This document shows positions 2 to 59,645 of a stretch of 64,000 nucleotides of DNA, piece after piece. Position numbers and translations under genes: made by a program. The notes beneath the pieces were generated by a model. The model was not told the origin of the DNA. It searched no databases and saw only the letters and a program-made list of their open reading frames with translations. Source of the stretch: a virus (taxonomy: Duplodnaviria > Caudoviricetes). Within the stretch, counting starts at the first letter, position 1. Every line of letters begins with the position of its first letter. The stretch covers positions 7,021-71,020 of IMG/VR virus record IMGVR_UViG_3300023173_000013. One strand, 5' to 3'.

Positions 2-307
2 TATGATTGTTATCTATCTCACTACCATACACTAGAGCCATTACTACCCCCTCTTGATCTTTGTATTATCCTTCAAGCTAAACCCGAAGTCGCTCTTGAG
101 CGAGTACGGAGGCGAGATAGAGGGTGTGAGACAGGGTTGACTTTAGAATACTTACAGGCACTCTCTGCTGAGATCGACCTTATCCCTAGTAGATTGAGGG
201 CTGAGACTAAAGTTGTTCATCTCGATTGGGTGGAAATGTCTAGGGCTGAGATTGCAAAGAAATGTGGCGAGATTGTCCGAAATTATTTCTTTGGTTTCTT
301 GCCTTGA
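2..307 (+). CDS. Deoxynucleoside kinase family protein, C-terminal part (5'-truncated by window edge)
   Basis: Manual translation of frame 2 gives ...PPLDLCIILQAKPEVALERVRRRDRGCETGLTLEYLQAL..., matching the dNK lid motif (PDLxIYL..xPExxxERIxxRxR.E...LEYLxxL). TGA stop at 305-307. Not in the ORF track because the start is missing. Confidence 0.75.
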   Translation, partial: YDCYLSHYHTLEPLLPPLDLCIILQAKPEVALERVRRRDRGCETGLTLEYLQALSAEIDLIPSRLRAETKVVHLDWVEMSRAEIAKKCGEIVRNYFFGFLP

Positions 308-1134
308 TTCTTTAGATACTCTGAAGTGTCTTTCTTGCATCTAGGGCTATTGGGCTTTTTGTACTTACAATAGATAGACCATGCCATAGGAAATGCGTAA
401 TCGGGGTCATACCCCTTTTCTTTCTCGAAGTATTCAGCCTTTTCGGTGACATACTTTGGTCGATCTATTTCTTTCTCTGCCTCAGCTACGAGTTCAGCAA
501 AGGACTCAGCATTTCTAGTGGGTAGTGAATGGGTTGAGTAACCCCCATACGCTTTGGTGTAAGAATCGAAAGCTAGTTTCAGGTTACTTATATCTCCTGC
601 AAGGATTGTATGGTTATTACTTCTTATCCATTCCTCAAGAACTCTCAAGTATTCCATTTCTCTCTTCTCAGCTCTTTCATCAACAACCCTTTCTAGCCAC
701 CTATGGAAAGGAACTGTAGCTTTGTTTATTTTTCTCGTTTGAGAAGCGTAAATCGTGCCGTAAGGCTCTACGAGAAAACCTGAATCATTAAGATATGCTT
801 TTTGACTGCCTGGTAAATAAATGCGAGCTAAGAATCCCTGTCCTGTTTGTTTTGTCCATACATTATGGTTTTGTCCTACTTTAGTTAAAAGCTCGGAAAG
901 CTTCTCTATGTTTTCGATAGCTTCTTCTTTATCCCACGCTTTCCATCTCTTACTCTGATCTTGTAGCCACTTTTTATATTCAAGAGACTGCTTAAACTTG
1001 AACTCCAAAAACTCCCTGTCGTCTGAATCCGTTAGATCAAAGGAATACCCTAACTTTTTCAGAGCAACTCTAGTGGTGTAAGAATCAAAGGCGATCTTCG
1101 CTACTCTCTTTATCATGTGTGCTTTTCTGTTCAT
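283..1134 (-). CDS. Hypothetical protein, probable virion cargo (N-terminal RKA..KRVAKIAF leader)
   Basis: 283-aa ORF with a good RBS (ACAGGAGAG). The N-terminus carries the shared leader motif. The C-terminus has a distinctive AWSIYCKYK..SPRC segment. Confidence 0.6.
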   Translation of the reverse strand: MNRKAHMIKRVAKIAFDSYTTRVALKKLGYSFDLTDSDDREFLEFKFKQSLEYKKWLQDQSKRWKAWDKEEAIENIEKLSELLTKVGQNHNVWTKQTGQGFLARIYLPGSQKAYLNDSGFLVEPYGTIYASQTRKINKATVPFHRWLERVVDERAEKREMEYLRVLEEWIRSNNHTILAGDISNLKLAFDSYTKAYGGYSTHSLPTRNAESFAELVAEAEKEIDRPKYVTEKAEYFEKEKGYDPDYAFPMAWSIYCKYKKPNSPRCKKDTSEYLKNQGKKPKK

Positions 1135-1173
1135 GGTGTACTCTCCTGTTTAAGGTACGCTGTTAATAGAACA

Positions 1174-1179
1174 TTTATC
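1174..1179 (+). promoter_or_regulatory. Putative phage late-promoter element TTTATC upstream of the tail tube gene
   Basis: The same TTTAT[AC] hexamer lies 39-51 nt upstream of about 10 structural or cargo gene starts (see findings). Confidence 0.45.
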
Positions 1180-2060: not shown

Positions 2061-2077
2061 TCCTTAGTTGGTATAAT

Positions 2078-16543: not shown

Positions 16544-17878
16544 ATGATTATGAGAAGACTAGCTAAAGCTAATGTAAATCCTATGAGACAGAGATCGCAG
16601 TATTCTTGCGTTGCCGCTTCAACTTGTATGGCACTTAATGCTCTTGGGGTTAAGTGTAACGAAGATGATGTGAATAAAGTAATCGGTGCAAAGCCGATGC
16701 AAGGTGCTAGGTGGGAAGAAGTCTTAGCCTGTGCTCAGTATTTCGGTTGTCGAGCAACCCTTACTACCCCTGCCACCCTCACTCAAGTAAAGGAATGGAC
16801 AGATCAAGGTAAGCCTGTCTTGATCGCATGGAATCCTGAAGGCAGGGATTGGAGTCACGCTAGTCTTATCTTTGATGTGACAGGAGAAAAGGGTAGCTAT
16901 ATCGTTCATGTGGCAGACCCTAATATCCCCAATCCCGACAAAACGACTCGTGAAGTAGAAGAAGACGAGTTTTATTCTAAGTGGTTTGAGAAATGGCCTA
17001 ACTACTTGGTGCGTAGACCTGCTTTAATGATCGACAGGGAAATAACTGAAGACGGCAGGCAGATCATGGCGAGCACTAAGACTGCTAGTATGGTCGAGCG
17101 TGTTGCTTCTAAGTACATTAAGGACTTGCATGGGCATGAGTTTGGACCGATTAGAGGTATGGAAGGTCCTATTCGCTTTAAGAATGGGCAAGTGCTTTAT
17201 TATGACCCAAGAGAAAATGGGGGCACTTATTACGACTCTCGGAAAGATATGTATCTTTCAGATAAAGAAATGGATTATATCCTAGCAGGGAAATATGGTT
17301 GGGAAAAGTCGGCAGGTGCAAGGGACAAGCCAAGAACCTTACAGGGAGGTACGATTAAAGTACCTATTAGGGGAGGTCATGTTCTTATTTCTAAGTGGGC
17401 TTTAGATCACATTATGATGCACAATGAAATCGGTACGGGGTCAGTATTCTCTAGGGGTATGAATGAGCGTACTTTGATTAATCTTGTGCAGAAAGCTCCG
17501 ATCAAAGGAAATGGTGGGTTATACACTATGAAGGCTAGTGGCGTGGGTTATGACTTAGTTATGCCTATAGAGGAAGCACTTGCTCTACCTGACGCAGTTC
17601 AGACTGAGGCAGTTAAAGAGGAACGAGGCAAGAAAGTGATTGTCCCTGCTGTTGAAACGTCAGCACCTCTAAGAGCATTTCAGACTGACGTAGTTACTTT
17701 GATCGTAAGACCAAGTAATCCTCAATTTTTACCTGCTGACGCTAAGCGTATTCCTGCAATTCTTGAAGAAGTTCGAGATGGTAGGTCTTATTCAGTTCTA
17801 ACAGCATTTCCCGGAGACCCTGATGTACCTGTGGCTTCTCAATGGGGTGGTCGGTTTGCAGTAGTAATCCCTAAGTAG
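16544..17878 (+). CDS. Multidomain protein: N-terminal C39-like cysteine peptidase plus two further domains separated by K-x-A linkers
   Basis: RQRSQYSCVAAS (Gln oxyanion / Cys nucleophile), DWSHASL (His) and VADPN (Asp) form the C39/papain-like set. Linkers: KTAS..RVASKY and EKSA. Confidence 0.7.
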   Translation: MIMRRLAKANVNPMRQRSQYSCVAASTCMALNALGVKCNEDDVNKVIGAKPMQGARWEEVLACAQYFGCRATLTTPATLTQVKEWTDQGKPVLIAWNPEGRDWSHASLIFDVTGEKGSYIVHVADPNIPNPDKTTREVEEDEFYSKWFEKWPNYLVRRPALMIDREITEDGRQIMASTKTASMVERVASKYIKDLHGHEFGPIRGMEGPIRFKNGQVLYYDPRENGGTYYDSRKDMYLSDKEMDYILAGKYGWEKSAGARDKPRTLQGGTIKVPIRGGHVLISKWALDHIMMHNEIGTGSVFSRGMNERTLINLVQKAPIKGNGGLYTMKASGVGYDLVMPIEEALALPDAVQTEAVKEERGKKVIVPAVETSAPLRAFQTDVVTLIVRPSNPQFLPADAKRIPAILEEVRDGRSYSVLTAFPGDPDVPVASQWGGRFAVVIPK

Positions 17879-17939: not shown

Positions 17940-18839
17940 ATGGCAGACATCTTTGATAAAATCGCCTCTGACTTCATTTCAGAGAAGGCATCTACTCCCT
18001 CAAACAACGGGGACATCTTTGACAAGATCGCTTCGGACTTCATTTCTAAGCGAGCCTCTTCACTTTCACAACCACTTCGCTCTAACTATGACTACGGTGA
18101 GAAACACGCTACGTCATTCTTAGACATGGACGAAGATGGTGATGGTCGTATTTCTCCTGAAGAATGGGAAGAGGGTTTTGACGGACTTGATTCTGACAAC
18201 TCAGGTTTCCTACAGGGAGAGGAGTGGGATAACCCTAACTTCGACCTTATTGACGAAGATGGTGACGGTGTTATTTCTCGTGACGAATGGTCTGAGGGAT
18301 TTGATGAGATTGATGCTGACGATGACGGCTTCATTTCTGAGACTGAATACTACAAGAAAGCTTCAAGGTTCGCTTCTGATCTTACAGAGGTAGACGAGAT
18401 TGTAGATGATCTTCAAGAAGACCTTGAAGAAGTAGATGACATTGTAGACGACCTTGTAGATGAGGAGGAGTTCTCAGGCAGATTTGTTTCAGATTTTGAT
18501 GCTGAAATGGAGATGCACAAATCAGCTCGCTTCCATGCTGGACCGAAAGGCAAGAAAGAGTTTGAGCAATGGAAGAAAGAAAACCCTGAAGCAGGGGAAG
18601 AATTCGACAAGCAAACAGAAATCAACAAAGATGTTGTTAAGAATCGTGCTAAAGCTATGAATTCTGAAGATTTCCAAGAGCTTGACGAAGAACAGCATGA
18701 GACAGAAGATAAGATCAAAGAACTTGAGAGCAGAGTAGATAAGCTTCAAGGTAAGAAAGAAGAAGTAGTGGATTCTGTCTCTAAGAAAGCTCGCTACGAA
18801 ATCATTGATGATCTAGGTCTTGGTTGGGGAGACTTCTAA
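17940..18839 (+). CDS. Acidic protein with four EF-hand Ca2+-binding loops, probable head-internal protein
   Basis: Loops DEDGDGRISPEE, DSDNSGFLQGEE, DEDGDGVISRDE and DADDDGFISETE fit the 12-residue EF-hand consensus. DIFDKIASDFIS is duplicated at the N-terminus. Confidence 0.75.
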   Translation: MADIFDKIASDFISEKASTPSNNGDIFDKIASDFISKRASSLSQPLRSNYDYGEKHATSFLDMDEDGDGRISPEEWEEGFDGLDSDNSGFLQGEEWDNPNFDLIDEDGDGVISRDEWSEGFDEIDADDDGFISETEYYKKASRFASDLTEVDEIVDDLQEDLEEVDDIVDDLVDEEEFSGRFVSDFDAEMEMHKSARFHAGPKGKKEFEQWKKENPEAGEEFDKQTEINKDVVKNRAKAMNSEDFQELDEEQHETEDKIKELESRVDKLQGKKEEVVDSVSKKARYEIIDDLGLGWGDF

Positions 18840-19363
18840 TGACAATCAAAACTGCAATCCCTGTTGACGAATTTTTAGACGCTAGAGGTAAGGTAGGTCG
18901 TAGAGATGACATGGCTTTACACGCAGGTAACGAGATTGTCATTTCCGATATTTCTTATGACCCTTATAGTCGTCAGAAGATGGTTAGCTATTACAAAGGC
19001 TCACGAAAAGTGACTGCTCCTGCTACTCAGGTCGTTGTTCTAAGTGGTAATAACAAGCCTCGACTTGCTTCAAAAGTAGCTTCACGACACCTTTCTAAGC
19101 GAGCCGATCATCATCATGGGTCATATATGAGCCTTCAGAATGTTCACGAAATGTATACGTTCCTAGACTCGATTGATAATATGATTGGTCACGAAGAAAA
19201 CCTCAAAGAACTAGATGATTGGGTCGAAGATAAAATCTCACACGCCCACGCTATTCTTCAAGACCTACACCGTTATTTCTCGTATGGTCGTGGATATGAC
19301 TCTGACGCTCTTGAGTCAGCAGAAGATTACCACGACTTAAACGAAGGGAAGTTCAAGTTCTAA
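18839..19363 (+). CDS. Hypothetical virion-associated protein (KVASRHLSKRA linker)
   Basis: A TAATG overlap with the previous gene suggests a start at 18839 rather than 18824. Carries the shared motif mid-protein. Confidence 0.55.
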   Translation: MTIKTAIPVDEFLDARGKVGRRDDMALHAGNEIVISDISYDPYSRQKMVSYYKGSRKVTAPATQVVVLSGNNKPRLASKVASRHLSKRADHHHGSYMSLQNVHEMYTFLDSIDNMIGHEENLKELDDWVEDKISHAHAILQDLHRYFSYGRGYDSDALESAEDYHDLNEGKFKF

Positions 19364-20768: not shown

Positions 20769-21275
20769 ATGAAACGATTAGCAAGCGAAGTCCTAAGAGA
20801 CTTACAAAACCGAGTATCTCAGCTTGAGAGCCGAACAAAGATCGCTAGGTCTATTCCTCGACCCCCTCAGAATGATGGCTTTATTGACCTTAAAAGAGCG
20901 ACTGCTATTTCAGATAAGGCACTTGACCGAGAGTATGGTTATGGTTTGAGCAAGCCAAACACATTTGGTTATGAGGCGAACAAGTATTCAAGCCTATATG
21001 CTTTAAATGCTATTTCTGAAAACTATAGTCTTGTTATGGCTAACCCTGATGACAAAAGTCTCATAGAAATCGTAGCAGATGCAGTCCATGACGGTTGGTC
21101 ATGGGCGGCATACAATGTAGATGACCCTCGCTATCAGACTCAGCCTGAAAAGCGAACCAATCGTATTGCTTTAGCAGACACTCCTTATCGTTCTCTTTCT
21201 GAAGACGAGAAAGAGAAAGATCGAGTGATCGCTAGAGCGTTAATTGACACTTACTATATGGCTTCAAAGAGGTAA
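20769..21275 (+). CDS. RyR-repeat domain protein with a cargo-type leader
   Basis: ADAVHDGW...LADTPYRSLSEDEKEKDRVIA matches the RyR repeat (A...H..W...L.PY..L.E.EK..DR). Leader: MKRLASEVLRDLQNRVSQLESRTKIA. Confidence 0.65.
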   Translation: MKRLASEVLRDLQNRVSQLESRTKIARSIPRPPQNDGFIDLKRATAISDKALDREYGYGLSKPNTFGYEANKYSSLYALNAISENYSLVMANPDDKSLIEIVADAVHDGWSWAAYNVDDPRYQTQPEKRTNRIALADTPYRSLSEDEKEKDRVIARALIDTYYMASKR

Positions 21276-21280: not shown

Positions 21281-22075
21281 ATGAGAAGAACAGCAAGCGA
21301 AATGCTGAGAGAACTAGAGATCAGAATTGCTCGTCTTGAGAGACAAGCTCGTGAACCTTTCACACGCACAGCGTCATTCAATGATCGAGTTGCGGCAGGT
21401 AAACCTTATCTTATGAGTGAGGGTCTTACGAAGGGAGCAGTTCGTGAAGGTGAAGCGTCAATGCTTTACAAGATTGATGAGGGTAGAAATCAGTCGAAGT
21501 ATTACGAAATGCTTATCGTACAATCTCCTCAGAATATTGGTGGATATACCCTTATCAAGAGATGGGGTAGACTTGGACCTCGCTTTCAGCAGAGAGAAGA
21601 GTTTTTCCGTAACCTAGCAGGTGCGAAAGCAGAGCTTGAGAAGATCGAACGTAGTAAGACTAAGAAGGGCTACATTTCTGCTTTCGGTGATTATCACAGA
21701 ACACCCGATGGACGTAAGCTCCCAATAGGTCAGTACCCTGTAGGTCTTGAGTCAAGTGCAGGCTCTTGGAGAAACCAAGAAGTGACTGTATGTCTCCCTG
21801 TTCTTAGAAAGCTCAATCAAGCATTGGAAGATGCAGTTCTTGATGCTGAAGCAGGTCATTTCGGACAAGACCTTATCCAAGACCTCGAAGATGTATTCGC
21901 TATGACGGCTGATCTTGGTGAGTCAATGGCTATGGAAGTTCAGAGTAAGCTTCGCCCACCACTAGAGAGACTTCGTGGTACAAACAGACGCTTCAAGAAT
22001 GACCCTAAAAAGATCGTGAAAGAGCTAAAGACTCTTTCTCGTTATCTTGACCTACAACTTTCACTTTGTAAGTGA
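21281..22075 (+). CDS. WGR domain protein with a cargo-type leader
   Basis: NQSKYYEM...LIKRWGRLG...AKAELEKIERSKTKKGY is a canonical WGR domain. Leader: MRRTASEMLRELEIRIARLERQA. Confidence 0.8.
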   Translation: MRRTASEMLRELEIRIARLERQAREPFTRTASFNDRVAAGKPYLMSEGLTKGAVREGEASMLYKIDEGRNQSKYYEMLIVQSPQNIGGYTLIKRWGRLGPRFQQREEFFRNLAGAKAELEKIERSKTKKGYISAFGDYHRTPDGRKLPIGQYPVGLESSAGSWRNQEVTVCLPVLRKLNQALEDAVLDAEAGHFGQDLIQDLEDVFAMTADLGESMAMEVQSKLRPPLERLRGTNRRFKNDPKKIVKELKTLSRYLDLQLSLCK

Positions 22076-22086: not shown

Positions 22087-22440
22087 TTAATGGCTTAAGA
22101 GGGAGATAAGATTCTGTCTTTCTTCCTCTTTCATTATAGTGAACATTTCACTTACATCTATCAGCAACAGATTACTTGCCTGTTGAGTGTAAGGCTTCTC
22201 GTATGCGACTCGTTCAATCAGTTTGCTCACGAAATCTGAAATGTCTAAACTATACGCATCGTTCGACTTGAGATCATACAGAAGCTCTTTTAAAGATTCA
22301 AAGAGTTTCAATGAGCAGAGCTTCCTGTCGTAGGGGTCAATCTGAGAGAAGAATGTGGGGAACATTTCTTCCATGACCTTAGCGATCTTCTGTTCATCTA
22401 TATAGCGTTGTGCGATCTTTGAAGCGAGCTTATTTCTCAT
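22087..22440 (-). CDS. Hypothetical protein with a cargo-type leader
   Basis: Begins MRNKLASKIAQRYIDEQKIA. Confidence 0.55.
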   Translation of the reverse strand: MRNKLASKIAQRYIDEQKIAKVMEEMFPTFFSQIDPYDRKLCSLKLFESLKELLYDLKSNDAYSLDISDFVSKLIERVAYEKPYTQQASNLLLIDVSEMFTIMKEEERQNLISLLSH

Positions 22441-22442: not shown

Positions 22443-23099
22443 CTAGTCTCCTAACTTAACTAGGGTACGTTCTGCTTGAGACTCACTAATCTCACCTATC
22501 TCAACTAAGAAGTAGAGATAGTCTTCTAGGCTCACATGATCGACAGGATAAGGAGTTGGCTTGATTATGTGACCCTCAAAAGTCAGACCAAGCCGATCAG
22601 CTACTTTCTCAACAGCTTGTATATTTTCTTTAGTGTCTTCCCATATTTCTATGTGCTTAATCTGAGGAAGTCTCTTGAGGATTTCAAAAGTAGTTCTTTG
22701 CTTGTAGGGAGCTGTTTTACTACCCATGTTAGGGTTGAGATAAACCTCATCAAAGTCTAGCCCCTTATTCTTGAGTAGCTCTGCAATCCTATAGTCCATG
22801 CTACCTGTACCGACTCGACCCGTACACATGACAGCCCACACATTCGGATTAGCGATAGAATCTTTCGCTTCTGCTACAACACTCTGAATCCAAGCGTTTG
22901 AGGGAGGTACATCAGCAAGGAAAGGTCTACCTAGAGACACATTGCTGACAAACCAATTCCCTAAAGCCTTTTTATCCCACCATTCGGGAGGTTCGGGGCT
23001 TCTAAATAGAGTGCCATCAAAGTCGTAAATGTGAAGCTCAAGGTTGGCTGAAGACTTCTTAATGAATTTAGTGGCTACTCTTGCTGTGAGGGTTCTCAT
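22443..23099 (-). CDS. HAD-superfamily phosphatase (Swiss-Army-Knife RNA-repair-like HAD), paralog 1
   Basis: HIYDFDGTLFRSP (motif I DxD), MCTGR (motif II) and IWEDT (motif IV). Leader: MRTLTARVATKFIKKSSA. Confidence 0.75.
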   Translation of the reverse strand: MRTLTARVATKFIKKSSANLELHIYDFDGTLFRSPEPPEWWDKKALGNWFVSNVSLGRPFLADVPPSNAWIQSVVAEAKDSIANPNVWAVMCTGRVGTGSMDYRIAELLKNKGLDFDEVYLNPNMGSKTAPYKQRTTFEILKRLPQIKHIEIWEDTKENIQAVEKVADRLGLTFEGHIIKPTPYPVDHVSLEDYLYFLVEIGEISESQAERTLVKLGD

Positions 23100-26029: not shown

Positions 26030-26046
26030 TGTAAGTACTCCATTTC

Positions 26047-27228: not shown

Positions 27229-27231
27229 TTC

Positions 27232-29243: not shown

Positions 29244-29246
29244 TTC

Positions 29247-29336: not shown

Positions 29337-29337
29337 A

Positions 29338-36985: not shown

Positions 36986-37999
36986 ATGAGCTACATAGAT
37001 GAAAATTGGTTAGACCCTCTAATAGCTGAACTCAATAGAAGAAGCCCTCAGAGTTGGACTTTCGTAGAGGATAATATGGCTCACGGGAGAGGGGTGACTC
37101 CACAAATCAGGTGGAGGAAAAGTGGTTGGGTTAAAGGTCGTAAGGCTTGGATTATCAATGATGACAACGAGCAATATGTCTTACTGTTTTCTTTAATAGA
37201 GCAAGATGGGGCGATCAAAGGGAACAAAGGAATTCGTCCTGTTCTTATTTTAGAAGCCGAACAGGGCAAGAGGGAGCTTTACAAGAAAGTCTTTAAAAAG
37301 CCACACAATAAAGCAGACGCTTTGTTGAAGTCGGTAAGAAGAAATGGGCAACTTGAATATGACCTCAGACCACACATTTCCGACTTAGTAGAGGCACTTG
37401 TTTCGGCATATGATAACCTTATGATGACTCTATTTAAGGTTGATGGTGTTCCTATGCTTGGGGAAGAAGTCTTCGATGAGTATGGGTATGCAGGCGTTCA
37501 TGCGATGAAAGCTGTTGTTGAAAGTGAAGACATAGAACTCATCAATAGGAAGCACGTTGTAGAACTCTTAGGAACCCCTAAGAAAGCGATGGCTATTAGA
37601 GTCGCTAGGTTGGCGATGAAGAGAGCTTCAAAAGGCTTTTATGAAGTTACTTTAGACACCACTCTTAAAAGTATTTGGAATCCCCCGTACCTAATGAAGG
37701 ATTACCCCAAGACTTTTGATCTTGAAAGTGAGAGAGACTTAGAAGAATTGGTGGAAAAAGAGTACAAGAAATACACTAGGGGGCTGAGTTCGAGTGAGAT
37801 TTTTGACCCTAAGAAAATCATCTTTGATAAGATGGGCGTTTTCGGGCTTAGGTTTGTTATGCGAACCTCACAGCATCACGGCGGCATTTCATTACCTAGC
37901 TTTACGATCACTATAGCCTCATACGACTATAGTGATGAGGACTTGCTTCAAATTCTTAAGCATGGGACTTTCTTCTCCCATGCTTTGAGACGCTACTAG
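36986..37999 (+). CDS. Two-domain hypothetical protein with an internal KKAMAIRVARLAMKRA linker
   Basis: 337-aa ORF. The shared motif separates two domains, and TTTATC lies upstream. Confidence 0.6.
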   Translation: MSYIDENWLDPLIAELNRRSPQSWTFVEDNMAHGRGVTPQIRWRKSGWVKGRKAWIINDDNEQYVLLFSLIEQDGAIKGNKGIRPVLILEAEQGKRELYKKVFKKPHNKADALLKSVRRNGQLEYDLRPHISDLVEALVSAYDNLMMTLFKVDGVPMLGEEVFDEYGYAGVHAMKAVVESEDIELINRKHVVELLGTPKKAMAIRVARLAMKRASKGFYEVTLDTTLKSIWNPPYLMKDYPKTFDLESERDLEELVEKEYKKYTRGLSSSEIFDPKKIIFDKMGVFGLRFVMRTSQHHGGISLPSFTITIASYDYSDEDLLQILKHGTFFSHALRRY

Positions 38000-38649
38000 T
38001 TTCTCTCGTAGTGAATAATCTCATCTACTAAGCCTAGCTCTAGGCATTTCTCAGGGTTCAGCCATAAGTCTCTCTTTAAGAGTTGCTTCAGTTGCTTCTT
38101 CTTCATGTTTGTATGCTTGAGGTAGATTGACTGAATCATTTCCATGAGTGAGTCCATAGACTCTTTCTCATCATTCAGATTCTCGTATGTCCCCCAAACA
38201 CCTGTACTGATTTGGTGGATAAGCATAAAGCTGTGTTCGGTGATAAAACGCTTTGCCCCTGCACATGATAGGATAGTCGCCGCAGATGCCGCCCCTCCTT
38301 CAATATAAGTGATGACAGGGATTTGAGAGTTAAGGATATGACTTGCCCCTGCAAGCCCACTAAAAGCACACCCACCATTTGAGTTGATGTGTAAATGGAT
38401 AGCAGGTGCTGAGGGTAAGTCTAACTCTGTAACCATGTTAAAGATATGTTGCCCTATATGCCTAATCGCAATACCCAATTCCATGATCGCTTTTGGAGTG
38501 ATGTCTTGGTAAAGATAGATATGATTATCAGAAATAGAAAGCTCGCCATGATAGTCTTTGTCGCTTCCATTTCTAACAGGCATATTATTAGTGGGTGTAG
38601 GGTAAATCCTACGATTAGTTGGAGGGTTGACGTACTTCATTTCATTCAC
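37996..38649 (-). CDS. ClpP-like (S14) serine protease subunit
   Basis: IHLHINSNGG, GAASAA (Ser), FMLIHQ (His) and KRDLWL...LELGLVDEI (Asp). Confidence 0.9.
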   Translation of the reverse strand: MNEMKYVNPPTNRRIYPTPTNNMPVRNGSDKDYHGELSISDNHIYLYQDITPKAIMELGIAIRHIGQHIFNMVTELDLPSAPAIHLHINSNGGCAFSGLAGASHILNSQIPVITYIEGGAASAATILSCAGAKRFITEHSFMLIHQISTGVWGTYENLNDEKESMDSLMEMIQSIYLKHTNMKKKQLKQLLKRDLWLNPEKCLELGLVDEIIHYERN

Positions 38650-47468: not shown

Positions 47469-48539
47469 ATGAGAAAGACAGCAAGTACACAGAGAGTTGC
47501 CCGTATGCACCTCGCTCGAATGAACAAGAGAGCCTTCTTCATGGATAATATCCAAGAGGGAGTTGTGAGTTCCTTTCTTCAGAGTGAAGCATCAAAAGAA
47601 GCCAAGTCTATTTCAGGAGAAGGGCAAGCAGGTCTAAAGTTCTTACAAAAGCATTTCGGACTTAACTCCCTAGAGAGCTTCATCAAGGCTATGGAAAAAT
47701 CCGATTATGACGAGAGCAATCCTATTCAGAAAATGGTAGCGATTGCAGGTTCTAAAGCTAAAAGTGCAGGCGAAGCAGGAGATATACTAGGTAGGTTTGC
47801 CAACGCATTTCAGAAACAAGACATCAAAGGCATGGCAGAAGCAACAGGGTTCGAGGAACAAACCGTAGCTCTTGTTCTTTTATGGTATGTAAGAAATGAA
47901 AAGAACGTCCAAGCCCCTCCTGCAAATAAACAAGCGTCTGTAAGTAAAGAAGCGTTTGGATTGTGGAATCCTTTTGCTGTCGCTCCTCCTCCTCCTCCTC
48001 CATTTCAAGCCCAAGCCGTGATTGTAGAGAAGGTTCTCAATTTATCGGGGACTGTCATTAGTCAACTTTCAACTCTGATTGGAAAGGGATTGGGTTGGTT
48101 ATACTCAATCATACCTCATGGTTGGTTGCCTTCTTTACCTGCGGGTAAAGCATGGTCTGCTATCTATTTCATTCTAGGGAAAGCATGGGCTTTGGTCGCC
48201 AAAGCAGGAGGCTTGGCTTTAGGTCTTATCAAGGCTTCTATTGTTAAGAGTACAGGAGCTTTTGGGATTGTCGCTGTCCTTAAAGTTCTCGGTGTTGCTC
48301 TTATCGTGTACTATGCTCTTTTAGGCATTTCTTGGCTGAGTTATCAAGTCACAAGACTCCCAAGTAGAGTGCTTGTGGAGTTCCCTCTCAAAGTCATTTG
48401 GACTCTTATTAAGCTGATCGGTAAGGGGGTGATAAAAGTCACTTCTTGGGCGTATGCTAATATCAAGTCTCTCATTTCCGACAATAAAGACTTGCTAGAG
48501 CCAAGCGACCCTATGCTCTTGGAAATGGAAGCGATCTAA
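47469..48539 (+). CDS. Probable virion cargo protein with membrane helices (paralog of 53038..54144)
   Basis: Leader RKTASTQRVARMHLARMNKRA|F, KQD...ALVLLWY shared with the paralog, a hexa-Pro, and a long hydrophobic C-terminal half. Confidence 0.6.
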   Translation: MRKTASTQRVARMHLARMNKRAFFMDNIQEGVVSSFLQSEASKEAKSISGEGQAGLKFLQKHFGLNSLESFIKAMEKSDYDESNPIQKMVAIAGSKAKSAGEAGDILGRFANAFQKQDIKGMAEATGFEEQTVALVLLWYVRNEKNVQAPPANKQASVSKEAFGLWNPFAVAPPPPPPFQAQAVIVEKVLNLSGTVISQLSTLIGKGLGWLYSIIPHGWLPSLPAGKAWSAIYFILGKAWALVAKAGGLALGLIKASIVKSTGAFGIVAVLKVLGVALIVYYALLGISWLSYQVTRLPSRVLVEFPLKVIWTLIKLIGKGVIKVTSWAYANIKSLISDNKDLLEPSDPMLLEMEAI

Positions 48540-49056: not shown

Positions 49057-50223
49057 ATGTACGCATATGATTTACTTGTAGACCCACAGACTTTCCAAAG
49101 TCAGCTCCGAAATAAAAGAGCGAGTTCCATGCCAATGGTGAACAAAGAAATTCAGATTCGCCTTGCTCGTATGCAGTTTGAAGTGGCTCTTAAAGAGGCT
49201 AAGACAGCAGGGTGGCTTGGTGACGCATGGGATGGGGTGAGGGATTGGTTGTCGAATGTATTTTCTCTTGGAAGTACTTTTATTGCAGGTCTTAAAGACT
49301 TAGTGGTTCGAGGAGTGAATTATTTATTTAAGGCATTTCTCGGAGATCGAGAGTTCAATAACTTTTTCATTAACTGGTTTAAGAAATGGGTCTATGAGTC
49401 AATGGGCCCAATCGTGTTTCAGTCGTATCTTAAAGGTGCGAATGACTTTATCTCAGCCTCTAAATATTTAGACCCTAGAGATATACAACCTGAATATACA
49501 ACGCCCGGACAAGCGGGAAAAGATAACTTCGACCTCCATGCTTATCTCAAAGGCTTTGAGTGGGCAAAGAACAGTCTTGCGAATGGTGTGCTAGATAGTC
49601 GAGTAACTCAGCTCAGAAATGTAGCTAAAAGTGAGAGATTGGAAGATTACCTTGTCGCCCGTATCGAAGACGAGTTCCCTGGGAGAGCAGTTCTTAAAGT
49701 CCTTGAGGAAATGATTGCTCTAATCAACCCTTATGGTATTTGGGAAGCTATGAAAGAGACTTATGGCAAAGTCTTAGGTACAAACGCAGATGGTGGGAAA
49801 TGGGGTGTTTTCAAAGCAGGTGCAGGTTCTTTGCTTGTTGGGAGTGTTTATGGGTTATTTAAGCTATTTATAGCTATTATGGCTGGATTTAACTTTGCTA
49901 CTATCTTTACAGGGGGAGTCATTTCAGGTCTTGGTGCTTTGTTTGCTACGTTTGTTTATAAGGGTGGGTCTTTAGGTTTTGCTAAGTCCTCAGCGGCAAA
50001 GCTACTGATGAAAGGCTTTAAAAAACTGTGGCTTAAGTTCGCTAAGAGTGAAGAAGATTCGTTCCAAGAAGAAGTCGAAAAAGAAGTAAAGCAATCGCCT
50101 GAGCAAATCTTCTTAGAGAACGCTAAAGGGAAGCTAATCCCTGCCCAAGAAGCTACTAAAGAAGACATACAAGGTGCAGTCCGTGTTGCTCGCCTCCACA
50201 TGAACCGTAAAGGACTAATCTAA
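49057..50223 (+). CDS. Probable virion cargo protein with a hydrophobic C-terminal hairpin
   Basis: IRLARMQFEVALKEAKTA|GW, a C-terminal VRVARLHMNRK, and a Gly-rich hydrophobic segment. Confidence 0.55.
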   Translation: MYAYDLLVDPQTFQSQLRNKRASSMPMVNKEIQIRLARMQFEVALKEAKTAGWLGDAWDGVRDWLSNVFSLGSTFIAGLKDLVVRGVNYLFKAFLGDREFNNFFINWFKKWVYESMGPIVFQSYLKGANDFISASKYLDPRDIQPEYTTPGQAGKDNFDLHAYLKGFEWAKNSLANGVLDSRVTQLRNVAKSERLEDYLVARIEDEFPGRAVLKVLEEMIALINPYGIWEAMKETYGKVLGTNADGGKWGVFKAGAGSLLVGSVYGLFKLFIAIMAGFNFATIFTGGVISGLGALFATFVYKGGSLGFAKSSAAKLLMKGFKKLWLKFAKSEEDSFQEEVEKEVKQSPEQIFLENAKGKLIPAQEATKEDIQGAVRVARLHMNRKGLI

Positions 50224-51557
50224 TGAAGTGCATTGTACCCCTTATTAAAATTGCTCTTAAGCACCCTCAAAGCAGAATCGCTCAATCAACTTTCAACCTT
50301 ATTTCTGATATGGCAGATGAAGAAAGAGCATCATCACATAACTTAAAAAACGCAAGTGAACAGTCTAATTATTGGAGAAGTTCTCTTGCTGTGATGAAGT
50401 ATGCTTCACAAGGCATACCTGTGGATCATTATCTTTCTGTGATCTCAAACAAAACAAGTAACCTCAAGGTTGAATTGAGTCCTTACTATTCATACTTGGG
50501 TGGGGACAGCCTAGATCAAATCGAGCATTTGATGAGGATTGCCGCAAAGAGCAAAAAAAAGCCTGCTCTTTCGATTTCGGAGCAAAGTGCAATTATTCAA
50601 GACCCTAAAGCTGACCCTAAAGCTAGAAAGAGAGCTTTTAATGCGATTTTTAAAGCTTTGGGCGAAGAAGGTGCTTCTTTAAAAAAGGCTTGGGAAGACA
50701 ATCTTAAAAAGAAGAGGAAAGTAAAGTACAAAACAAGCAAAGGAGCAGAGAGAGAGAAAGAGGTGTCTCTTAAAACGATTGCAGGTTTTAGTAAGGTAAA
50801 GAACCCTAGCTTAAAAGAGGCATATCAAAAAATTTGGCAAGAACAATATGAGGGATACCTCAAAGCAGTAGTGTCTAGTGCCGAAGGCTTAGAAGGTAAG
50901 AAAGAAGCCCCTAAAGAAGCTCCTAAAGAAGCCCCTAAAGAAGCCCCTAAAGAAGCCCCTAAGAAAAACCTACCACCCTCTCTGCAAGGGTTATCAGAAG
51001 AAGAGTTGAATAAAGTGATGAAAGGTGAACCTACTAAGAAAGATGCACCTAAAAAGAAAGATGCACCTAAAAAGAAAGAAATGGAAGTAACAGACAGCCA
51101 GGGAAATAAAATAAAAATAACAGACAACCGAGGAATGTCTTTGGAAGATTTCAATAAATCTTACGAAGAGGCGATGGCAAAACTAAATAAAACAGTTGAA
51201 AAACTTCCTCCAATAGCGAGGAACGAAAAACTAGAGGCTTTAGATAGGCTAGTAAACCCAGATGCCTATAAAACTAAAAAAGACAGAAATAGTATAGACT
51301 TCAGTAAAGCAGAGCGAGAACTTGTTGATTACTATAAAGATATGTCTGAAGGTATTTTTTGGGATGATCCAAAAAGTAGAAAAGATTATGAGAAAACTCT
51401 AAAAGAAGGAGAGGAATCTCTTAAGTGGTTACAAGATTTGGATGAAAGTGAATACGATGGTGAAGCAGGTCCAAATGGTGAAGGAGAAATTGCATTGATG
51501 GAACTGATAGACGAGTATAAAAAAGAGTGGGGATCCATGTTTGAAAATGACGACTAG
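50223..51557 (+). CDS. Hypothetical Lys/Glu-rich protein with K-x-A motifs and low-complexity repeats
   Basis: LKNAS, MKYAS and MRIAAK; KEAP x5 and KKDAPK x2. Confidence 0.55.
   Translation: MKCIVPLIKIALKHPQSRIAQSTFNLISDMADEERASSHNLKNASEQSNYWRSSLAVMKYASQGIPVDHYLSVISNKTSNLKVELSPYYSYLGGDSLDQIEHLMRIAAKSKKKPALSISEQSAIIQDPKADPKARKRAFNAIFKALGEEGASLKKAWEDNLKKKRKVKYKTSKGAEREKEVSLKTIAGFSKVKNPSLKEAYQKIWQEQYEGYLKAVVSSAEGLEGKKEAPKEAPKEAPKEAPKEAPKKNLPPSLQGLSEEELNKVMKGEPTKKDAPKKKDAPKKKEMEVTDSQGNKIKITDNRGMSLEDFNKSYEEAMAKLNKTVEKLPPIARNEKLEALDRLVNPDAYKTKKDRNSIDFSKAERELVDYYKDMSEGIFWDDPKSRKDYEKTLKEGEESLKWLQDLDESEYDGEAGPNGEGEIALMELIDEYKKEWGSMFENDD
50901..50960 (+). repeat. 12-bp tandem repeat x5 (AAAGAAGCCCCT) encoding KEAP
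   Basis: Directly visible; one unit has GCT instead of GCC. Confidence 0.9.
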
Positions 51558-51568: not shown

Positions 51569-51940
51569 ATGAGTCTTAATCTATATCACTACAAAGCAGA
51601 GGTTATTTCCGTATATGACGGAGACACTATGACTCTTATGGTCGATCAGGGCATGAAGCACTACAATCGCATTAAGGTGCGTATGTACGGTATCAACACC
51701 CCAGAGATCAGAACCAAAGACCTTGAGGAGAAAGCTAGAGGCATTGAAGCTCGTGAATACCTCAAGTCTCGCCTAGAGGGTAAGCAGGTCATCATCTACA
51801 CGAAAGAGAAGGGCAAGTTCGGGCGTTGGCTTGGAGTCGTGTGGGTCTATGAGGAGGGCATGGAAGAACTAGGGGAGTCCCTCAATGACGAGCTCATAAG
51901 AATGGGTCATGCTGTCGCTTACTTCGGAGGAGCAAGATGA
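51569..51940 (+). CDS. Thermonuclease (staphylococcal nuclease fold)
   Basis: VISVYDGDT, KVRMYGINTPE and GKFGRWLG. Confidence 0.9.
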   Translation: MSLNLYHYKAEVISVYDGDTMTLMVDQGMKHYNRIKVRMYGINTPEIRTKDLEEKARGIEAREYLKSRLEGKQVIIYTKEKGKFGRWLGVVWVYEEGMEELGESLNDELIRMGHAVAYFGGAR

Positions 51941-53034
51941 AACTACACCTTTTTGATTTTGACGGGACTTTGTTTAAATCTCCTGAGTATGTTCCCGATT
52001 GGTGGGAAGCTCCAGGCCAATGGTCTTGGTTATCACACCCATTATCTTTAACAGACCCTTGTGTTCCTTTAAATCCCTCAAGTGATTGGTGGATTAAGTA
52101 TACAGTTGAAGAAGCAAAAAAGAGTGTCAGAAATAGAGACGCTTTGACCATTATATGCACAGGTCGTGTTAAGGCACACAAACCACGCATTTTGTCTCTT
52201 TTGAATAAAGCAGGGATAAGAGGATTAGATAATCTCTATTTCAACACAGGCATCTCTGCGGCAAAGTTCAAGTTAGAAGTTATTGATGACTTATACAGGA
52301 AATATTCGTTTGAAGAAGTACACATATGGGAGAACGAAAATTACAATCACTACAAAGAAGTGATTGAGTCAAAGTACGGTATTCCCTGTGTAATCCACCC
52401 TATCCATGAAGAACATGGTCATTATCAATGTACGCCCCAAGATATTAGACTAGACGGTCAAGACGTGAATATAAGAAATGAGAAGGAAGTCCTCCCCCCT
52501 AACGCATTAAGAGTAGCTTCAGCTAGAAAAAGTATGGCAATCAGAGTAGCTTCTCTCAAGGTTGCTCAAATGGAGAAAGAAGCCTTTATCAACGCTAAGA
52601 AGATAATCACTAAGATCATGTCTTATTTCCCCAATGAGATTCAGGCATTTCTTCAAGGAGCGAATGAAGAGCAAATCACAAAGCAGATCAAACTGCTTCA
52701 GAAAGACAAAGAGTTTATGAAGATCGTAGAGGAAGCCCCAAAGAAATCCTCTATTAGAGAGCTTTGGGGGTACTTCTCGTTCTCCATAAAGCGAGCTTTC
52801 AACTTCGGTAAAAAGGCTCTAGGAGTCGCCATATTCTTAGGTGTTTTACTCGCTATGCTAGGTGGTGTGGCTTATTACCTTGGAGGGGGTCAGATTGGTG
52901 CTCTACTATCAGGGTTTCTATTTGCACCTGCGGTTGACTTTGAATACGACCCAGACCCTAAGTCAATCCGAAAAAGACAAGAAAGCAATGCAAGAGAAAT
53001 CGCTAGAAATAGACTTCTCAATGATAGGAGGTAA
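51937..53034 (+). CDS. HAD phosphatase (RNA-repair-like), paralog 2, fused via RVAS...KEA to a membrane-helix domain
   Basis: LHLFDFDGTLFKSP, ICTGR and HIWEN; linker ALRVASARKSMAIRVASLKVAQMEKEA|F; C-terminal transmembrane segment. Confidence 0.75.
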   Translation: MKLHLFDFDGTLFKSPEYVPDWWEAPGQWSWLSHPLSLTDPCVPLNPSSDWWIKYTVEEAKKSVRNRDALTIICTGRVKAHKPRILSLLNKAGIRGLDNLYFNTGISAAKFKLEVIDDLYRKYSFEEVHIWENENYNHYKEVIESKYGIPCVIHPIHEEHGHYQCTPQDIRLDGQDVNIRNEKEVLPPNALRVASARKSMAIRVASLKVAQMEKEAFINAKKIITKIMSYFPNEIQAFLQGANEEQITKQIKLLQKDKEFMKIVEEAPKKSSIRELWGYFSFSIKRAFNFGKKALGVAIFLGVLLAMLGGVAYYLGGGQIGALLSGFLFAPAVDFEYDPDPKSIRKRQESNAREIARNRLLNDRR

Positions 53035-53037: not shown

Positions 53038-54144
53038 ATGAACAAGCAAGCAAGACAAGAAATGGTTATCCGAGTAGCTTCTAAGAAAATGGCTCGTATG
53101 GAAAAGCAAGCTCATTTCCTTAGTGGCATACAGGAAAAACTCACAGCGTTGTTTATGAAGGAAGCTGACCAAAGAGTTCAGAAAGAGCTTAAGGGTCAGT
53201 CGAGTGCTTCTAAAGTGGGTCTAGCATGGGCGGCTAAAGAGGCAGGTTTAAATAGCTTTAACGACATACTTGAACTTGCAAAGAAAGGGGCTAAGCCTAA
53301 TCTTAAAGACCCTATTCAAAGGCTCATTTACGAGCGTACCAACGGAATGAAAGACCCCGTTGAAGTGGCTAATCTAGTCGGTGAGCTGAGCCTTGCATAT
53401 AAGAAGCAAGATGTAGGGGAAATGGCGAAAGTCCTCAAGGTAGACGAGGAAGTGATCGCACTCGTTTTGCTTTGGTACACAAGAAATAAGACTGCCGATG
53501 AATATGATTGGGGCGAGCACCGAGTCAGAAAGATTGACCAAGGAACTGAGAAGTTACTCAACCTGTCTGCTAAGACTCTCAAAGTGGTTAGTTTTCTCAC
53601 AGGAGGAAATGCAATCGAGTGGATTGTGAAGCTACTCCCTAAAGGCTCTTTAGTAGGGAAGCCTTTGAAATGGGGTTGGTGGACACTACTCTTAGTGAAC
53701 AGATGGACAATTTTGTCGGGCATTTACAGCTTTGCGGCAGCTAACATTTCCACTTTGGTCGGTTGGATGATGTCGGGTGCAGGGGGTGCTTTCCTAGAGT
53801 TTGTCGCTGTAGGTCTTCACTTATATACTACACCTATTTGGCTTATCCTCTTTGCGACTATTGCTCTTTCTGAGTTCCTTCATGTTGGTCGAGCCGAGCG
53901 TGAATGGGGTCTAAAAAATCCGTTCACTTCTCTATTTCTAGTTCCTATTAAGTCCATCTTTGCGATTCTGAAGCAGGTCTTTACGGGTGCTGTGAAAGTT
54001 GGCAAGGCTATCATCGCAGAACTCAAAGAGTATCTGCTCGAAAACGCAAGTATCTTGAAAAGTGCATTTCCTAACTTATCAAGTTGGCTTTCAGAGTCAA
54101 GAGCGTTCAGCCCTCGTGAACAAGATCAGCTCGCCTTAGCTTAA
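53038..54144 (+). CDS. Probable virion cargo protein with membrane helices (paralog of 47469..48539)
   Basis: Leader MNKQARQEMVIRVASKKMARMEKQA|HF; KQD...IALVLLWY..NKTA. Confidence 0.6.
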   Translation: MNKQARQEMVIRVASKKMARMEKQAHFLSGIQEKLTALFMKEADQRVQKELKGQSSASKVGLAWAAKEAGLNSFNDILELAKKGAKPNLKDPIQRLIYERTNGMKDPVEVANLVGELSLAYKKQDVGEMAKVLKVDEEVIALVLLWYTRNKTADEYDWGEHRVRKIDQGTEKLLNLSAKTLKVVSFLTGGNAIEWIVKLLPKGSLVGKPLKWGWWTLLLVNRWTILSGIYSFAAANISTLVGWMMSGAGGAFLEFVAVGLHLYTTPIWLILFATIALSEFLHVGRAEREWGLKNPFTSLFLVPIKSIFAILKQVFTGAVKVGKAIIAELKEYLLENASILKSAFPNLSSWLSESRAFSPREQDQLALA

Positions 54145-58300: not shown

Positions 58301-59645
58301 TATGGCACTCGATATTCTTACAGAGTATCCTGAAAGAGAGGCTTTGAGAGCAAAGCTAGAAGCCGAAGAAAAGGGTATGGCGAAGAAAGAGGAAGCCGAG
58401 AAACTTCTTGATACTCTAAGTAAAAAGAATAAGACTGATCTGACTGCTGATGAACAGACAGAGCTTGCTCAGTTAAAGCAAGGATTACACCCTCTACAAG
58501 AGGAGAGTGCCAAGCTCATTAGTGGGACTGCTGAGGCAGGTAAGATTGCGAGAAATAGAGCAAGAATGGAGAAGAAAGAAAAGAAGCAGAGATACTCTGT
58601 CAAGGTTGATGAAATAATGAAGCAAACAGACCTAGACGTAGAGATCGCTTCACAAAAGAAAATTGAAGATGCAAAGAACATCTTGACCTCAAGAATACTT
58701 GGCGACACAGCTTCGACAGGAGCTTCATTACCAAGCCCTCTAACCTATAAGAATCAAAATATCGCTCGTGGGTTAGCTTCTGTAGCTAATGCTAAGTTAC
58801 TAAGCGATAAAAGTGTCGCTAAGAGCGTAACCTCAGCAATCGTAAAAGCTGACCCCTCAGACCTTCTTAACTTTTTAGATACCTCTCCTGAATGTTTCTC
58901 AGGGGTGAGTACGAATAAGGTGCAGGTGTCTTTGCTCAAAGGATTTGTGAAGTCCTTTAAGGAAATAGGTCGCTTCTATGACTCAAATTCAGGTTCTTCT
59001 TATACCCCGACTTTTAACTCCCCTTTTGAGGATTCTGCTTCAGGAAGAATAGCGAATTATGTGTCAGACTTTGTGGCATACATTGCAGTTTGTTGTTCTA
59101 TTGAAGTCGCAGAGCAGACGCTCCGAAACTACTACGAAGTAGATAATGGTCAGATTTACGTCAAACAATCAGCAGGTGTCTTTGACCTTTATAAGAGTGT
59201 TGGCTTCTATACAGAAGCAAGGGAATTTCTTGAAAAGAACGGATACAATGAAGGGGTTAGTAACCTTCTTAAAGGACAAGCAGGAATGACTGAAGAATCT
59301 GTTACACGTCTTGGTGAGGAATTGAGAGATCACATAAAAGGGCTTCTTGAAGACCAACTTGACACACAGATTCCGAGGTCTTACTTAAGAAGAAACCTTA
59401 TTTCAGTTGAGGTTAGTGGAGGTGAGGAGCAAGAGCCGAAAATCTCAGCCAATTTCTCTATTCAATTAGGTAACATTGGAGACAGAAGAGATGAGATTTC
59501 AAGCAACTACAAAGGGTTCCTTAATGGTCTTGTTCTTTTGGGTGGTGCTTATCTTAAAGGAGGCGAAGATGTACTTTATGAGTCTCTTGGCTTAGACCCT
59601 GACTGTGGAAATGCGTTTGCTTCTTTGGTGGAGTTAGAAAGGTAA
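55341..59645 (+). CDS. Large (1434 aa) hypothetical protein, probable virion component, with an embedded sigma-like segment
   Basis: KTAS, KTSA and KRAS motifs near the N-terminus; TTTATC upstream; directly precedes the baseplate genes. Confidence 0.6.
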   Translation: MLITQDQARSVIAKLIYISICGDSTKTASETTELKRQLISFIKTSAMTRKRLSDPGTNLSEWEIGDHFQSIIDLVEIQYFHTLLLIRTGLDIDTLSQTEFKAIQRTSNGNKFYKKLVEFGYDKILFTGTGITTQRDQEREMKDLYRKSRKSFTLSGLINYIKKQNIKSVGGDDPAEFVVNTILEVVAGETGEQTGDDYLKTLGISTMRRVTSSRSILAFFMNEASNSYSKRASLTSDEEGTKAGDWERFKAKTVADLKFAKRKIYDYTRRKMNQLKDISLPLLTMEMEDGISIYDQITDLSFDGGEAEAFLDEYVNKGLNSTKLRTLAKDLSRKLDRDSLQPSDVPSIFGSLFADGMSVNLIRYALANIEAVSSDRSVQRNMRELAYKRIYALGGLSPREIGLLDTEVGGNKAVRGRAKASMKRLVSSRFGLEDLRPMFTLFDKHIGGTELDEENGYSYFVDTDQYPLISDDFWSKVVAPAEKALIRFETLPIQISDKIGIGLQATISEVNGLFGLILKRAKSFGVAESQFDDFVLADVNSDSIDLNHNLGEIDHLRKKMKKALSSKKIVSHPLNSLSSLNYEEVDTSTRASSLHAGNLTNERLSTFSKLKSAMLKTEPYKSDMEDLEAYRLWVQSFSFSAVEAISKIYSGDSGNLLGGKKGPNDEQLEEFAKVVYEDLQPRYNRKPSFNRGGEFNSLKDIVSDISILSKFEKAFQDVVDYSNQDPDDIDRPEMIKRAGVFYDAYKTLSDNFSTTYANGIKAISENSEYADDFATLKQSIVREIALESLSPRSRRGTEKFTSQIKRQRATATAKLSSTALNQAQIIEDVLGKDKGGPVMTEDKIQKAIQKAKDAWVKATQNLKSEVMTKAEVSTFIQSVSGEITEAEIQKKLKELETAGFSTFVVQNVGTYLDEDISITNDEKRELTELLENASSQTEKVSERLTTEVESLLSQGDFLLPEARINALEISDKAKKTLMKSYEKFRDAMALDILTEYPEREALRAKLEAEEKGMAKKEEAEKLLDTLSKKNKTDLTADEQTELAQLKQGLHPLQEESAKLISGTAEAGKIARNRARMEKKEKKQRYSVKVDEIMKQTDLDVEIASQKKIEDAKNILTSRILGDTASTGASLPSPLTYKNQNIARGLASVANAKLLSDKSVAKSVTSAIVKADPSDLLNFLDTSPECFSGVSTNKVQVSLLKGFVKSFKEIGRFYDSNSGSSYTPTFNSPFEDSASGRIANYVSDFVAYIAVCCSIEVAEQTLRNYYEVDNGQIYVKQSAGVFDLYKSVGFYTEAREFLEKNGYNEGVSNLLKGQAGMTEESVTRLGEELRDHIKGLLEDQLDTQIPRSYLRRNLISVEVSGGEEQEPKISANFSIQLGNIGDRRDEISSNYKGFLNGLVLLGGAYLKGGEDVLYESLGLDPDCGNAFASLVELER

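Follow-up and report, generated by a model that had tools for sequence, protein, structure and literature searches.

Why should some fifteen otherwise unrelated proteins of one tailed phage share variants of a single short basic peptide? The question is raised by a stretch of 64,000 nucleotides (the window in what follows), namely positions 7,021 to 71,020 of the IMG/VR virus record IMGVR_UViG_3300023173_000013 (Duplodnaviria; Caudoviricetes), which form the final 64 kb of this 71-kb record. An initial annotation, made from the letters alone, had noted the pattern [RK]-[VIL]-A...K-x-A at the ends or between the domains of these proteins, and had proposed that it combines a capsid-targeting address with a cleavage code for a maturation protease. 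The view reached here, which is held to be rather likely, is that head-internal cargo is marked by assemblin-like maturation sites of the form [RK]-x-A-S and, together with these, by leader or tail helices of two families; as judged from their sequences, the approximately fifteen unrelated tagged proteins are probably loaded into the capsid and trimmed there.

In such a scheme, the recurring peptide (a basic residue, any residue, Ala and Ser) would be the substrate site of the head-maturation (prohead) protease of the clade, the cut being presumed to fall between Ala and Ser, and the likely enzyme would be a protease of the gp21/assemblin fold encoded outside the window and the 71-kb record. 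The accessory proteins would carry the tag in one of three forms: a leader (leader B in the following); a short amphipathic helix, which in most cases has a second [RK]-x-A or the protein end as its other limit and looks excisable; or bare sites in disordered linkers. The tagged proteins would be co-assembled into the prohead, with the helix or the leader providing the contact with the scaffold core, and the protease would then trim them or cut them into modules, as in T4 with Alt and the internal proteins. The scissile bond is placed by analogy, and targeting through the helix, packaging and injection are likewise presumed steps.

The recurrent peptide and its statistics

The window has no close cultured relative, a megablast search of 10 kb of it against cultured phages giving no match, and its relatives were found through the DNA polymerase. 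The most informative is G001, of 275 kb and an estimated 88% completeness, which is syntenic with the window in reversed orientation; G002 is approximately the same phage, and G003 is a 61-kb fragment closer to the window. The major capsid protein of G001 shares 88.6% identity with that of LR745208, an uncultured record, 47% with that of Tunturiibacter phage Tunturi_5 and 38% with gp27 of Bacillus phage G and, therefore, the lineage is phage G-like.

Every motif string listed in the initial annotation was found at its gene, that given as 18839 starting at 18824 in the present open reading frame (ORF) call. With per-protein shuffles as the source of expected counts, the strict core [RK]-[VI]-A-[SRTQK]-x-[FYH]-[ILMF] occurs 10 times on the 71-kb record, against 0.17 expected, which bears out the claim that the motif is commoner than in shuffled proteins. 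On the same record, [RK][VI]A[SRTQK] is found 29 times (7.0 expected), the core extended by a hydrophobic +6 residue 18 times (1.8 expected) and [RK][VIL]A followed 4-14 residues later by K.A 14 times (2.4 expected), while, of the 24 orders in which the four residue classes can stand, the observed one is the commonest (29 occurrences; 17 for the runner-up). Because these patterns had been shaped on the window's own genome, the independent relative G001 provides the fairer test, and there the strict core is found 12 times against 0.39 expected; LR745208 exhibits a weaker excess of the core, with many instances adjoining head genes, and neither phage G (1 versus 0.8 expected) nor Tunturi_5 (0 versus 0.4) is enriched in the strict core. 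A second [RK].A lies 4-16 residues past the core in 9 of 15 cases on the record (background 10.5%, p = 4e-6) and in 6 of 22 in G001 (p = 0.014), and this greater than chance frequency suggests a helix bracketed by two sites, or by one site and the protein end.

The signal is indeed present on about fifteen proteins, to which three further carriers, upstream of the window on the same record, have to be added. Its reported absence from replication genes is approximately true, with two [RK].AS in 26 replication and modification genes and about 3.5 expected (summed from the table of counts). The association of the carriers with the element TTTAT[AC], by contrast, was not borne out, the element preceding 4 of 14 carriers and 9 of 47 other genes. 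TTTAT[AC] itself lies 40-63 nt upstream of 13 window genes, including that of the DNA polymerase, with a narrow spacing to the start codon that makes it promoter-like (e.g. genes 1227, 17940, 19674, 33861, 36986, 49057, 55341 and 59702 and, on the minus strand, 31144-33840).

Not all motif searches were able to separate the signal: a purpose-written expectation-maximization finder overfitted and single-seed BLOSUM word scans gave noise, whereas a gapped-word scan did separate the motif from noise. Since K-T-A-S, K-R-A-S, R-L-A-S and R-V-A-S kept recurring, the tetrapeptide [RK]-x-A-S was tested, and was found 148 times in G001 (55.8 expected, z = 13) and 36 times on the record of the window (14.7 expected). 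When all 24,000 words of three residues, ungapped or with a single gap, are scanned without bias, 'R.AS' ranks first in G001 (80 versus 26, log10 p -16.8), RV.S, K.AS, RTA, RVA and TAS are also within the top 14, and RVA, KRA and KTA come near the top for the window's record. The restricted form [RK][TVIKRL]AS gives 104 sites against 23.4 expected, with at least one in 64 of the 271 G001 proteins. Position P3 is Arg at 59 and Lys at 45 of the 104 sites, Thr, Val, Lys, Ile and Arg predominate at P2, Ala alone is enriched at P1, and P1' is mainly Ser, with His, Arg and Tyr enriched about twofold. Codon use at 97 sites mirrors that of the genome, both Ser codon families included, so that the constraint acts on the peptide and not on the DNA, and a DNA-level motif was rejected on this ground. 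From the tetrapeptide statistics it also follows that address and cleavage code are one kind of site; thus, of the two signals initially distinguished, K-x-A stands as a likely cleavage code, and [RK]-[VIL]-A as a separate address does not. Among the three-residue words of Tunturi_5, 'K.AA' comes second in over-representation (87 versus 40.8 expected) and the protein in scaffold position contains 20 [RK]-x-A, which may reflect a sister specificity with a different P1'.

Sites in the head module and in the prohead protease of relatives

The proposed link of the peptide with capsid maturation is supported by its clustering in a scaffold-like protein and in the prohead protease of the relatives, the protease being encoded outside both window and record. 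The head genes of G001 follow the order portal, 1146-amino-acid protein, protease, scaffold-like protein and capsid protein, and the most enriched G001 proteins belong to this module: a 681-residue protein, the protease, an 866-residue protein upstream of the terminase and two small proteins nearby. The 681-residue protein, whose gene separates that of the prohead protease from that of the major capsid protein, contains nine sites, 21% Asp plus Glu and repeats rich in Met, Ala, Glu and Asp, and is regarded as scaffold-like because of this composition and position; the protease contains five sites. By region of G001, the site is enriched 11-fold in the head module, 8- to 10-fold in two slots of window-type carriers and 1.4-fold at 220-275 kb. 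In LR745208 the same head proteins carry sites, at about 40% identity.

The concentration extends well beyond these genomes. Eighty loci were fetched through the protease family and 36 of them were analysed: the ORF directly downstream of the protease is acidic and 381-760 residues long in 35 of the 36, has up to 10 copies of the site, and contributes in total 207 [RK].AS against 22.2 expected. Of six permuted or substituted control words in the same ORFs, five occur at 0.9-1.6 times expectation and [RK].GS is depleted (0.11 times). In G001 and LR745208, the scaffold-like protein ends in a conserved C-terminal tail, which a site precedes by about 22 residues. In phage G and Tunturi_5, [RK]-x-A is found at the ends of the protease as well as within the proteins in scaffold position.

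The G001 protease is identified by PHROG as a head maturation protease (1.6e-15). It was not recognised in Pfam and PDB sequence searches, and plain Foldseek gave a weak match (E 5e-3); alignment of its model with VIA-align returned T4 gp21 (5jbl) as the best match (Z 10.8, root-mean-square deviation 3.0 Å, 145 of 166 residues), followed by a run of herpesvirus proteases (Z 5.6-6.7). As far as the predicted model allows one to say, the protease has the fold of T4 gp21 and herpesvirus assemblin. The search for a prohead protease, which the initial annotation had called for, was thus successful in G001, and negative in the window and the 71-kb record.

The family comprises 1,786 representatives at E < 0.001, with at least 572 relatives in viral contigs. 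In an alignment of 70 homologues (33-63% identity), the catalytic domain is flanked on either side by [KR]-x-A positions that stand out as conserved from the variable sequence around them: on the N-terminal side K/R5 (68/70) with A7 (65/70), and R/K25 (57/70) with A27 (39/70); on the C-terminal side K/R287 (66/70) with A289 (64/70). The AlphaFold2 (AF2) model is confident at residues 40-250 and places site 287-289 in a disordered linker, with a predicted local distance difference test score (pLDDT) below 50. This conservation points to autoprocessing, as far as can be judged from an alignment. Many of the homologues P0128-P0276 are 860-1850 residues long, with two to five separate matched stretches, and may contain inteins or be fusions.

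A separate observation in G001 is an 882-residue protein (176137-178785) with a Dps/ferritin-like C-terminal domain and an R-V-A-R site.

Leaders, helices and linkers of the accessory proteins

The carriers are accessory enzymes of diverse kinds, as initially proposed, and most are encoded on the same strand as the structural genes. They include a C39-like peptidase, an acidic protein with four EF-hands, a WGR protein, a RyR-domain protein, two HAD_SAK_1 proteins, the paralogues 47469 and 53038, 49057, 36986 and three small proteins; PHROG and Pfam left most of the carriers unnamed. Eleven of 14 lie on the plus strand, contiguous with large structural-type genes and baseplate genes, and the replication genes are on the minus strand. 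Several have no G001 orthologue although their neighbours do; the carriers are the variable genes inside conserved synteny. The features are collected in the table.

Table. Tag-bearing segments, the C39-like domain and the ClpP-like protease of the window (coordinates within the window)
Feature	Coordinates	Strand	Evidence or remark
N-terminal leader of gene 283-1134	1054..1134	-	Two R-V-A (residues 10 and 22); alignment with G001 orthologue starts only at residue 32
C39-like papain-fold peptidase domain of 16544-17878	16544..17077	+	Pfam PF13529, 1.2e-6; ends ..Q-I-M-A-S
Inter-module linker of 16544-17878	17078..17119	+	K-T-A-S and R-V-A-S-K-Y-I; residues 175-189 pLDDT < 50
Second linker site E-K-S-A of 16544-17878	17303..17314	+	Residues 250-260 pLDDT < 50, between two predicted modules
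Duplicated leader of EF-hand protein 17940-18839	17940..18059	+	Three [RK]-x-A-S and E-K-A-S
Internal tandem sites and helix, gene 18824-19363	19061..19105	+	Directly before conserved C-terminal domain
Leader B, diverged copy, RyR-domain protein 20769-21275	20769..20849	+	Among the 12 genes headed by leader B
Leader B, canonical 23 residues, WGR-domain protein 21281-22075	21281..21349	+	Three [RK]-x-A sites
N-terminal leader of gene 22087-22440	22381..22440	-	Motif present
N-terminal leader of HAD_SAK_1 protein 22443-23099	23046..23099	-	Motif kept in G001 orthologue
Internal site pair and helix, gene 36986-37999	37583..37627	+	R-V-A position conserved
ClpP-like protease	37996..38649	-	Pfam PF00574, 5.5e-28; in replication block, as is G001 orthologue
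N-terminal leader of gene 47469-48539	47469..47534	+	K-T-A-S, R-V-A-R, K-R-A
N-terminal leader region of gene 49057-50223	49114..49209	+	Motif present
C-terminal tail tag of gene 49057-50223	50182..50220	+	Motif present
Loose sites in gene 50223-51557	50247..50294	+	Weak; excluded from firm carriers
Joint of HAD domain and C-terminal part, gene 51937-53034	52510..52584	+	Two R-V-A-S sites; ends K-E-A
N-terminal leader of gene 53038-54144	53038..53112	+	Ends K-Q-A

Instead of the single leader type initially envisaged, two families are found. Leader B is a 23-residue N-terminal segment, which opens with M-R-R-T-A-S, runs on through R-[IV]-A-R-L-E in a heptad-like helix and terminates in [KR]-[QT]-A (E-[KR]-x-A); it heads 12 otherwise unrelated genes of G001 and of the window's record, including genes upstream of the window. 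Its second half varies synonymously, and the first 23 nt are nearly invariant in DNA (e.g. 21281-21303 and 20769-20791), possibly owing to a constraint on translation initiation or at the RNA level. The second family is the heptapeptide helix R-V-A-S-basic-aromatic-aliphatic, which is found near N-termini, at joints or as C-terminal tails of 7-15 residues; the broader core pattern has 15 matches on the record, six internal and one C-terminal, and comparable C-terminal tails are found in G001, G003 and homologues of the C39 family. By their sequences, leader B and several R-V-A leaders would fit an N-terminal leader removable at a protease site. The leader of gene 53038-54144, which has no homologue in G001-G003, is conserved in six homologues, with the mature part starting directly after K-Q-A.

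Most carriers are single-domain proteins; among the multi-domain ones, 51937-53034 has two modules and 16544-17878 about three. For the latter, AF2 predicts the C39-like domain (pLDDT 76-92 across most of residues 11-140), a disordered tagged segment, a small module, the disordered E-K-S-A segment and a poorly predicted C-terminal part. More than 538 homologues of the C39 domain all end at M-A-S (..G-R-Q-V-M-A-S) and then diverge into hypervariable modules of 12-550 residues; within the domain, the top-ranked of them reach 80-90% identity, whereas many other window proteins are only 30-60% identical to their G001 orthologues. By sequence, the domain looks like a conserved head with exchangeable payloads. 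The motif at the linker junction recurs in the orthologues of G001 and LR745208, that of G001 stopping three residues past the heptapeptide.

More generally, homologues shuffle modules exactly at the tags. In P0006 a HAD domain is joined to a 53038-like domain through a joint like that of 51937-53034, and in P0005 a different N-terminal region precedes the 53038-like domain. In G001 the domain of 18824 is fused to the EF-hand protein as one gene, with a decayed motif at the joint; the ends of the EF-hand protein of the window resemble G001 205439-206293, which has five sites. The HAD_SAK_1 protein 22443-23099 has its LR745208 homologue inside the head module, and the R-V-A position of 36986-37999 is kept in three orthologues at 33% identity, with different flanking residues. 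The last 28 residues of 36986-37999 (37916-37999) are, in addition, 75% identical to the otherwise unrelated G001 92754-93188, and may represent a second portable tail.

Known systems and competing readings

A close parallel in phages is T4 gp21 with the targeting sequences that direct IPI-III, Alt and gp24 to the capsid. Both systems have the same protease fold, the site multiplied in scaffold core and protease, and short N-terminal leaders on unrelated, variable accessory proteins, the T4 targeting leaders being of 10-20 residues (PMC5694885). However, the T4 site is (L/I)-x-E, cut after Glu, and here P1 is Ala, P1' is Ser and P3 is basic; C-terminal and joint tags, two leader families, conservation on the prime side and the larger scale (64/271 G001 proteins) are further differences. 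Indeed, the characterised gp21-type phage proteases (T4, phiKZ, 201phi2-1, SPN3US) all cut after Glu (PMC5694885). The phages phiKZ, 201phi2-1 and SPN3US (gp175, gp245) are similar in being giant phages that load many head proteins, with substrates defined by a cleavage motif. Their proteases cleave themselves at the C-terminus and propeptides can hold several sites (PMC5694885; PMC10052503); in SPN3US all reported cuts except the self-cleavage of the protease give N-terminal propeptides (PMC10052503). Their motif, however, is A/S/G-x-E, and the head lineage here is phage G-like.

The R and M sites of herpesvirus assemblin follow the consensus (V/L/I)-x-A-S, cut between Ala and Ser. The sites described here have in common with them Ala at P1 and Ser at P1', along with a protease of related fold, and the site of the G001 and LR745208 scaffold-like proteins before their conserved tail is arranged like the M site, which lies close to the herpesvirus scaffold's C-terminus, where the capsid protein is bound, and whose cleavage frees the scaffold from the capsid protein (PMC4498786). 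In vivo, pseudorabies assemblin ends in Ala (PMC4498786). On the other hand, P3 is basic here and not aliphatic, the protease is separate from the scaffold and substrates are far more numerous; all of the 104 sites have Arg or Lys at P3, whereas V/I-M-A-S, with which the C39 domain closes, agrees with the assemblin consensus. Encapsulin cargo-loading peptides are short portable terminal peptides that direct unrelated cargo into a shell of the HK97 fold; the likeness is functional only, the sequences being unrelated and no protease taking part there, and shell binding in the present case would be suggested by analogy. Finally, the polyvalent proteins of Iyer et al. 2017 (PMC5512222) are similar in their diverse conflict-type modules, predicted to be delivered with the DNA, and in the peptidase domains proposed to process them; they differ in assembling 2-15 conflict-related domains per polypeptide, whereas here there are mostly separate small genes, each tagged. 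WGR and RyR have no occurrence in PMC5512222.

Several points weigh against head-internal cargo marked by prohead-protease sites. The link to the enzyme comes from comparison with relatives whose DNA polymerases are at most 74% identical to that of the window, portal, terminase, capsid and prohead-protease genes being absent from the window, and the head genes, prohead protease included, from the 71-kb record. The cultured relatives phage G and Tunturi_5 have no genome-wide enrichment. G001 regions that include replication genes are enriched 4- to 5-fold and, therefore, not every site marks cargo; besides, a four-residue motif is too short to identify individual substrates reliably and gives false positives. 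Some G001 orthologues have decayed tags. Targeting by the helix or by leader B is the weaker half of the explanation: unlike in the T4 targeting sequences, the conserved residues of the heptapeptide are on the prime side of the proposed cut. A stronger version, in which an amphipathic helix between two Ala-Ser sites would be a position-independent, excisable capsid-loading tag that works from the N-terminus, the C-terminus or a joint and is released inside the head, is viewed as tentative. Such a tag would be in use among the uncultured, phage G-like jumbo phages of aquatic habitats, a large clade whose protease is encoded by more than 570 viral contigs, and phages of this type may deliver dozens of different enzymes per virion.

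The alternative that survives best, although it is considered unlikely, is that heptapeptide and leader B are docking helices only, which would attach to the scaffold, the portal, the inside of the capsid or some other hub and remain uncleaved, in the manner of the encapsulin peptides. The extended motif is amphipathic, recurs across phages of the clade and is position-independent (N-terminal, internal or C-terminal), and the hydrophobic pattern of leader B is heptad-like, all as docking would require; the same idea leaves without explanation that the bare tetrapeptide ranks first among the words of the proteome, that acidic scaffold-like proteins contain as many as 10 copies, and the conserved positions flanking the catalytic domain of the protease.

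A little less probable again is cleavage by the C39-like peptidase of the window, in place of the prohead protease, to free its fused modules and process the other tagged proteins. Known C39 enzymes cut after Gly-Gly, phage G and Tunturi_5 have no such peptidase and yet keep [RK]-x-A in protease and scaffold, and the sites conserved in the prohead-protease family point to that enzyme's own processing. The invariable M-A-S end of the domain, followed by variable modules, speaks for the peptidase, as does [RK].A[ST] within 30 residues in 34% of its homologues versus 14% of control windows, and peptidase domains have been proposed to autoprocess polyvalent proteins (PMC5512222). Docking of the motif in cis into the C39 active site was considered and rejected, since AF2 leaves the segment disordered, outside the active site.

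That there is no dedicated signal, the leaders being recombination cassettes or recent duplications and the rest a compositional bias of helix-forming segments, is already disfavoured and seems very improbable: the near-invariance of the first 23 nt of leader B genes and the paralogy of some carriers (47469 and 53038) would be accounted for, but not the synonymous variation in the second half of leader B, the genome-like codon use, the lack of enrichment of permuted words or that in two other large phage proteomes. Weakest of all, a phospho-acceptor or other modification site R-x-x-S, for which Arg or Lys at -3 from Ser would fit the consensus of basophilic kinases, was rejected because Ser is not invariant, being often replaced in the extended motif by Arg, Lys, Gln or Thr with Ala at -1 as the most specific residue, while no kinase is seen in the window annotation and the concentration in scaffold and protease fits proteolysis better.

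Should the maturation site be correctly assigned, the processed head proteome would become predictable from sequence across a large clade of jumbo phages which, except for phage G and Tunturi_5, is known only from metagenomes, and a phage protease of the gp21 fold would have an Ala-Ser specificity otherwise known from herpesvirus assemblin. Being the variable genes of the genome, the tagged genes are natural candidates for injected factors, and the tagged WGR, RyR, EF-hand, HAD, papain-like peptidase and membrane-like proteins would be candidates for host takeover or counter-defence. If the excisable tag were real, cargo could be read from sequence alone, and a portable tag active at the C-terminus as well would offer a practical means of loading capsids with proteins.

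Among the remaining genes of the window are those for replication (DNA polymerase A, DnaB-like helicase, primase and SNF2 helicase), a DNA methylase block, NUDIX, two topoisomerase-IB-like proteins, the ClpP-like protease and, at the 3' end, baseplate genes. The ClpP-like protease was rejected as the processing enzyme on account of its position in the replication block and of its family, which is not site-specific. In 24854-30531, the methylases and an ABC-GNAT fusion have common C-terminal ..Q-D-N-F-F-G/E-V tails. The two topoisomerase-IB-like paralogues (34662-36218 and 40979-42439) carry duplicated acidic helices at their end, after K-R-A/G-T, as does the G001 orthologue.

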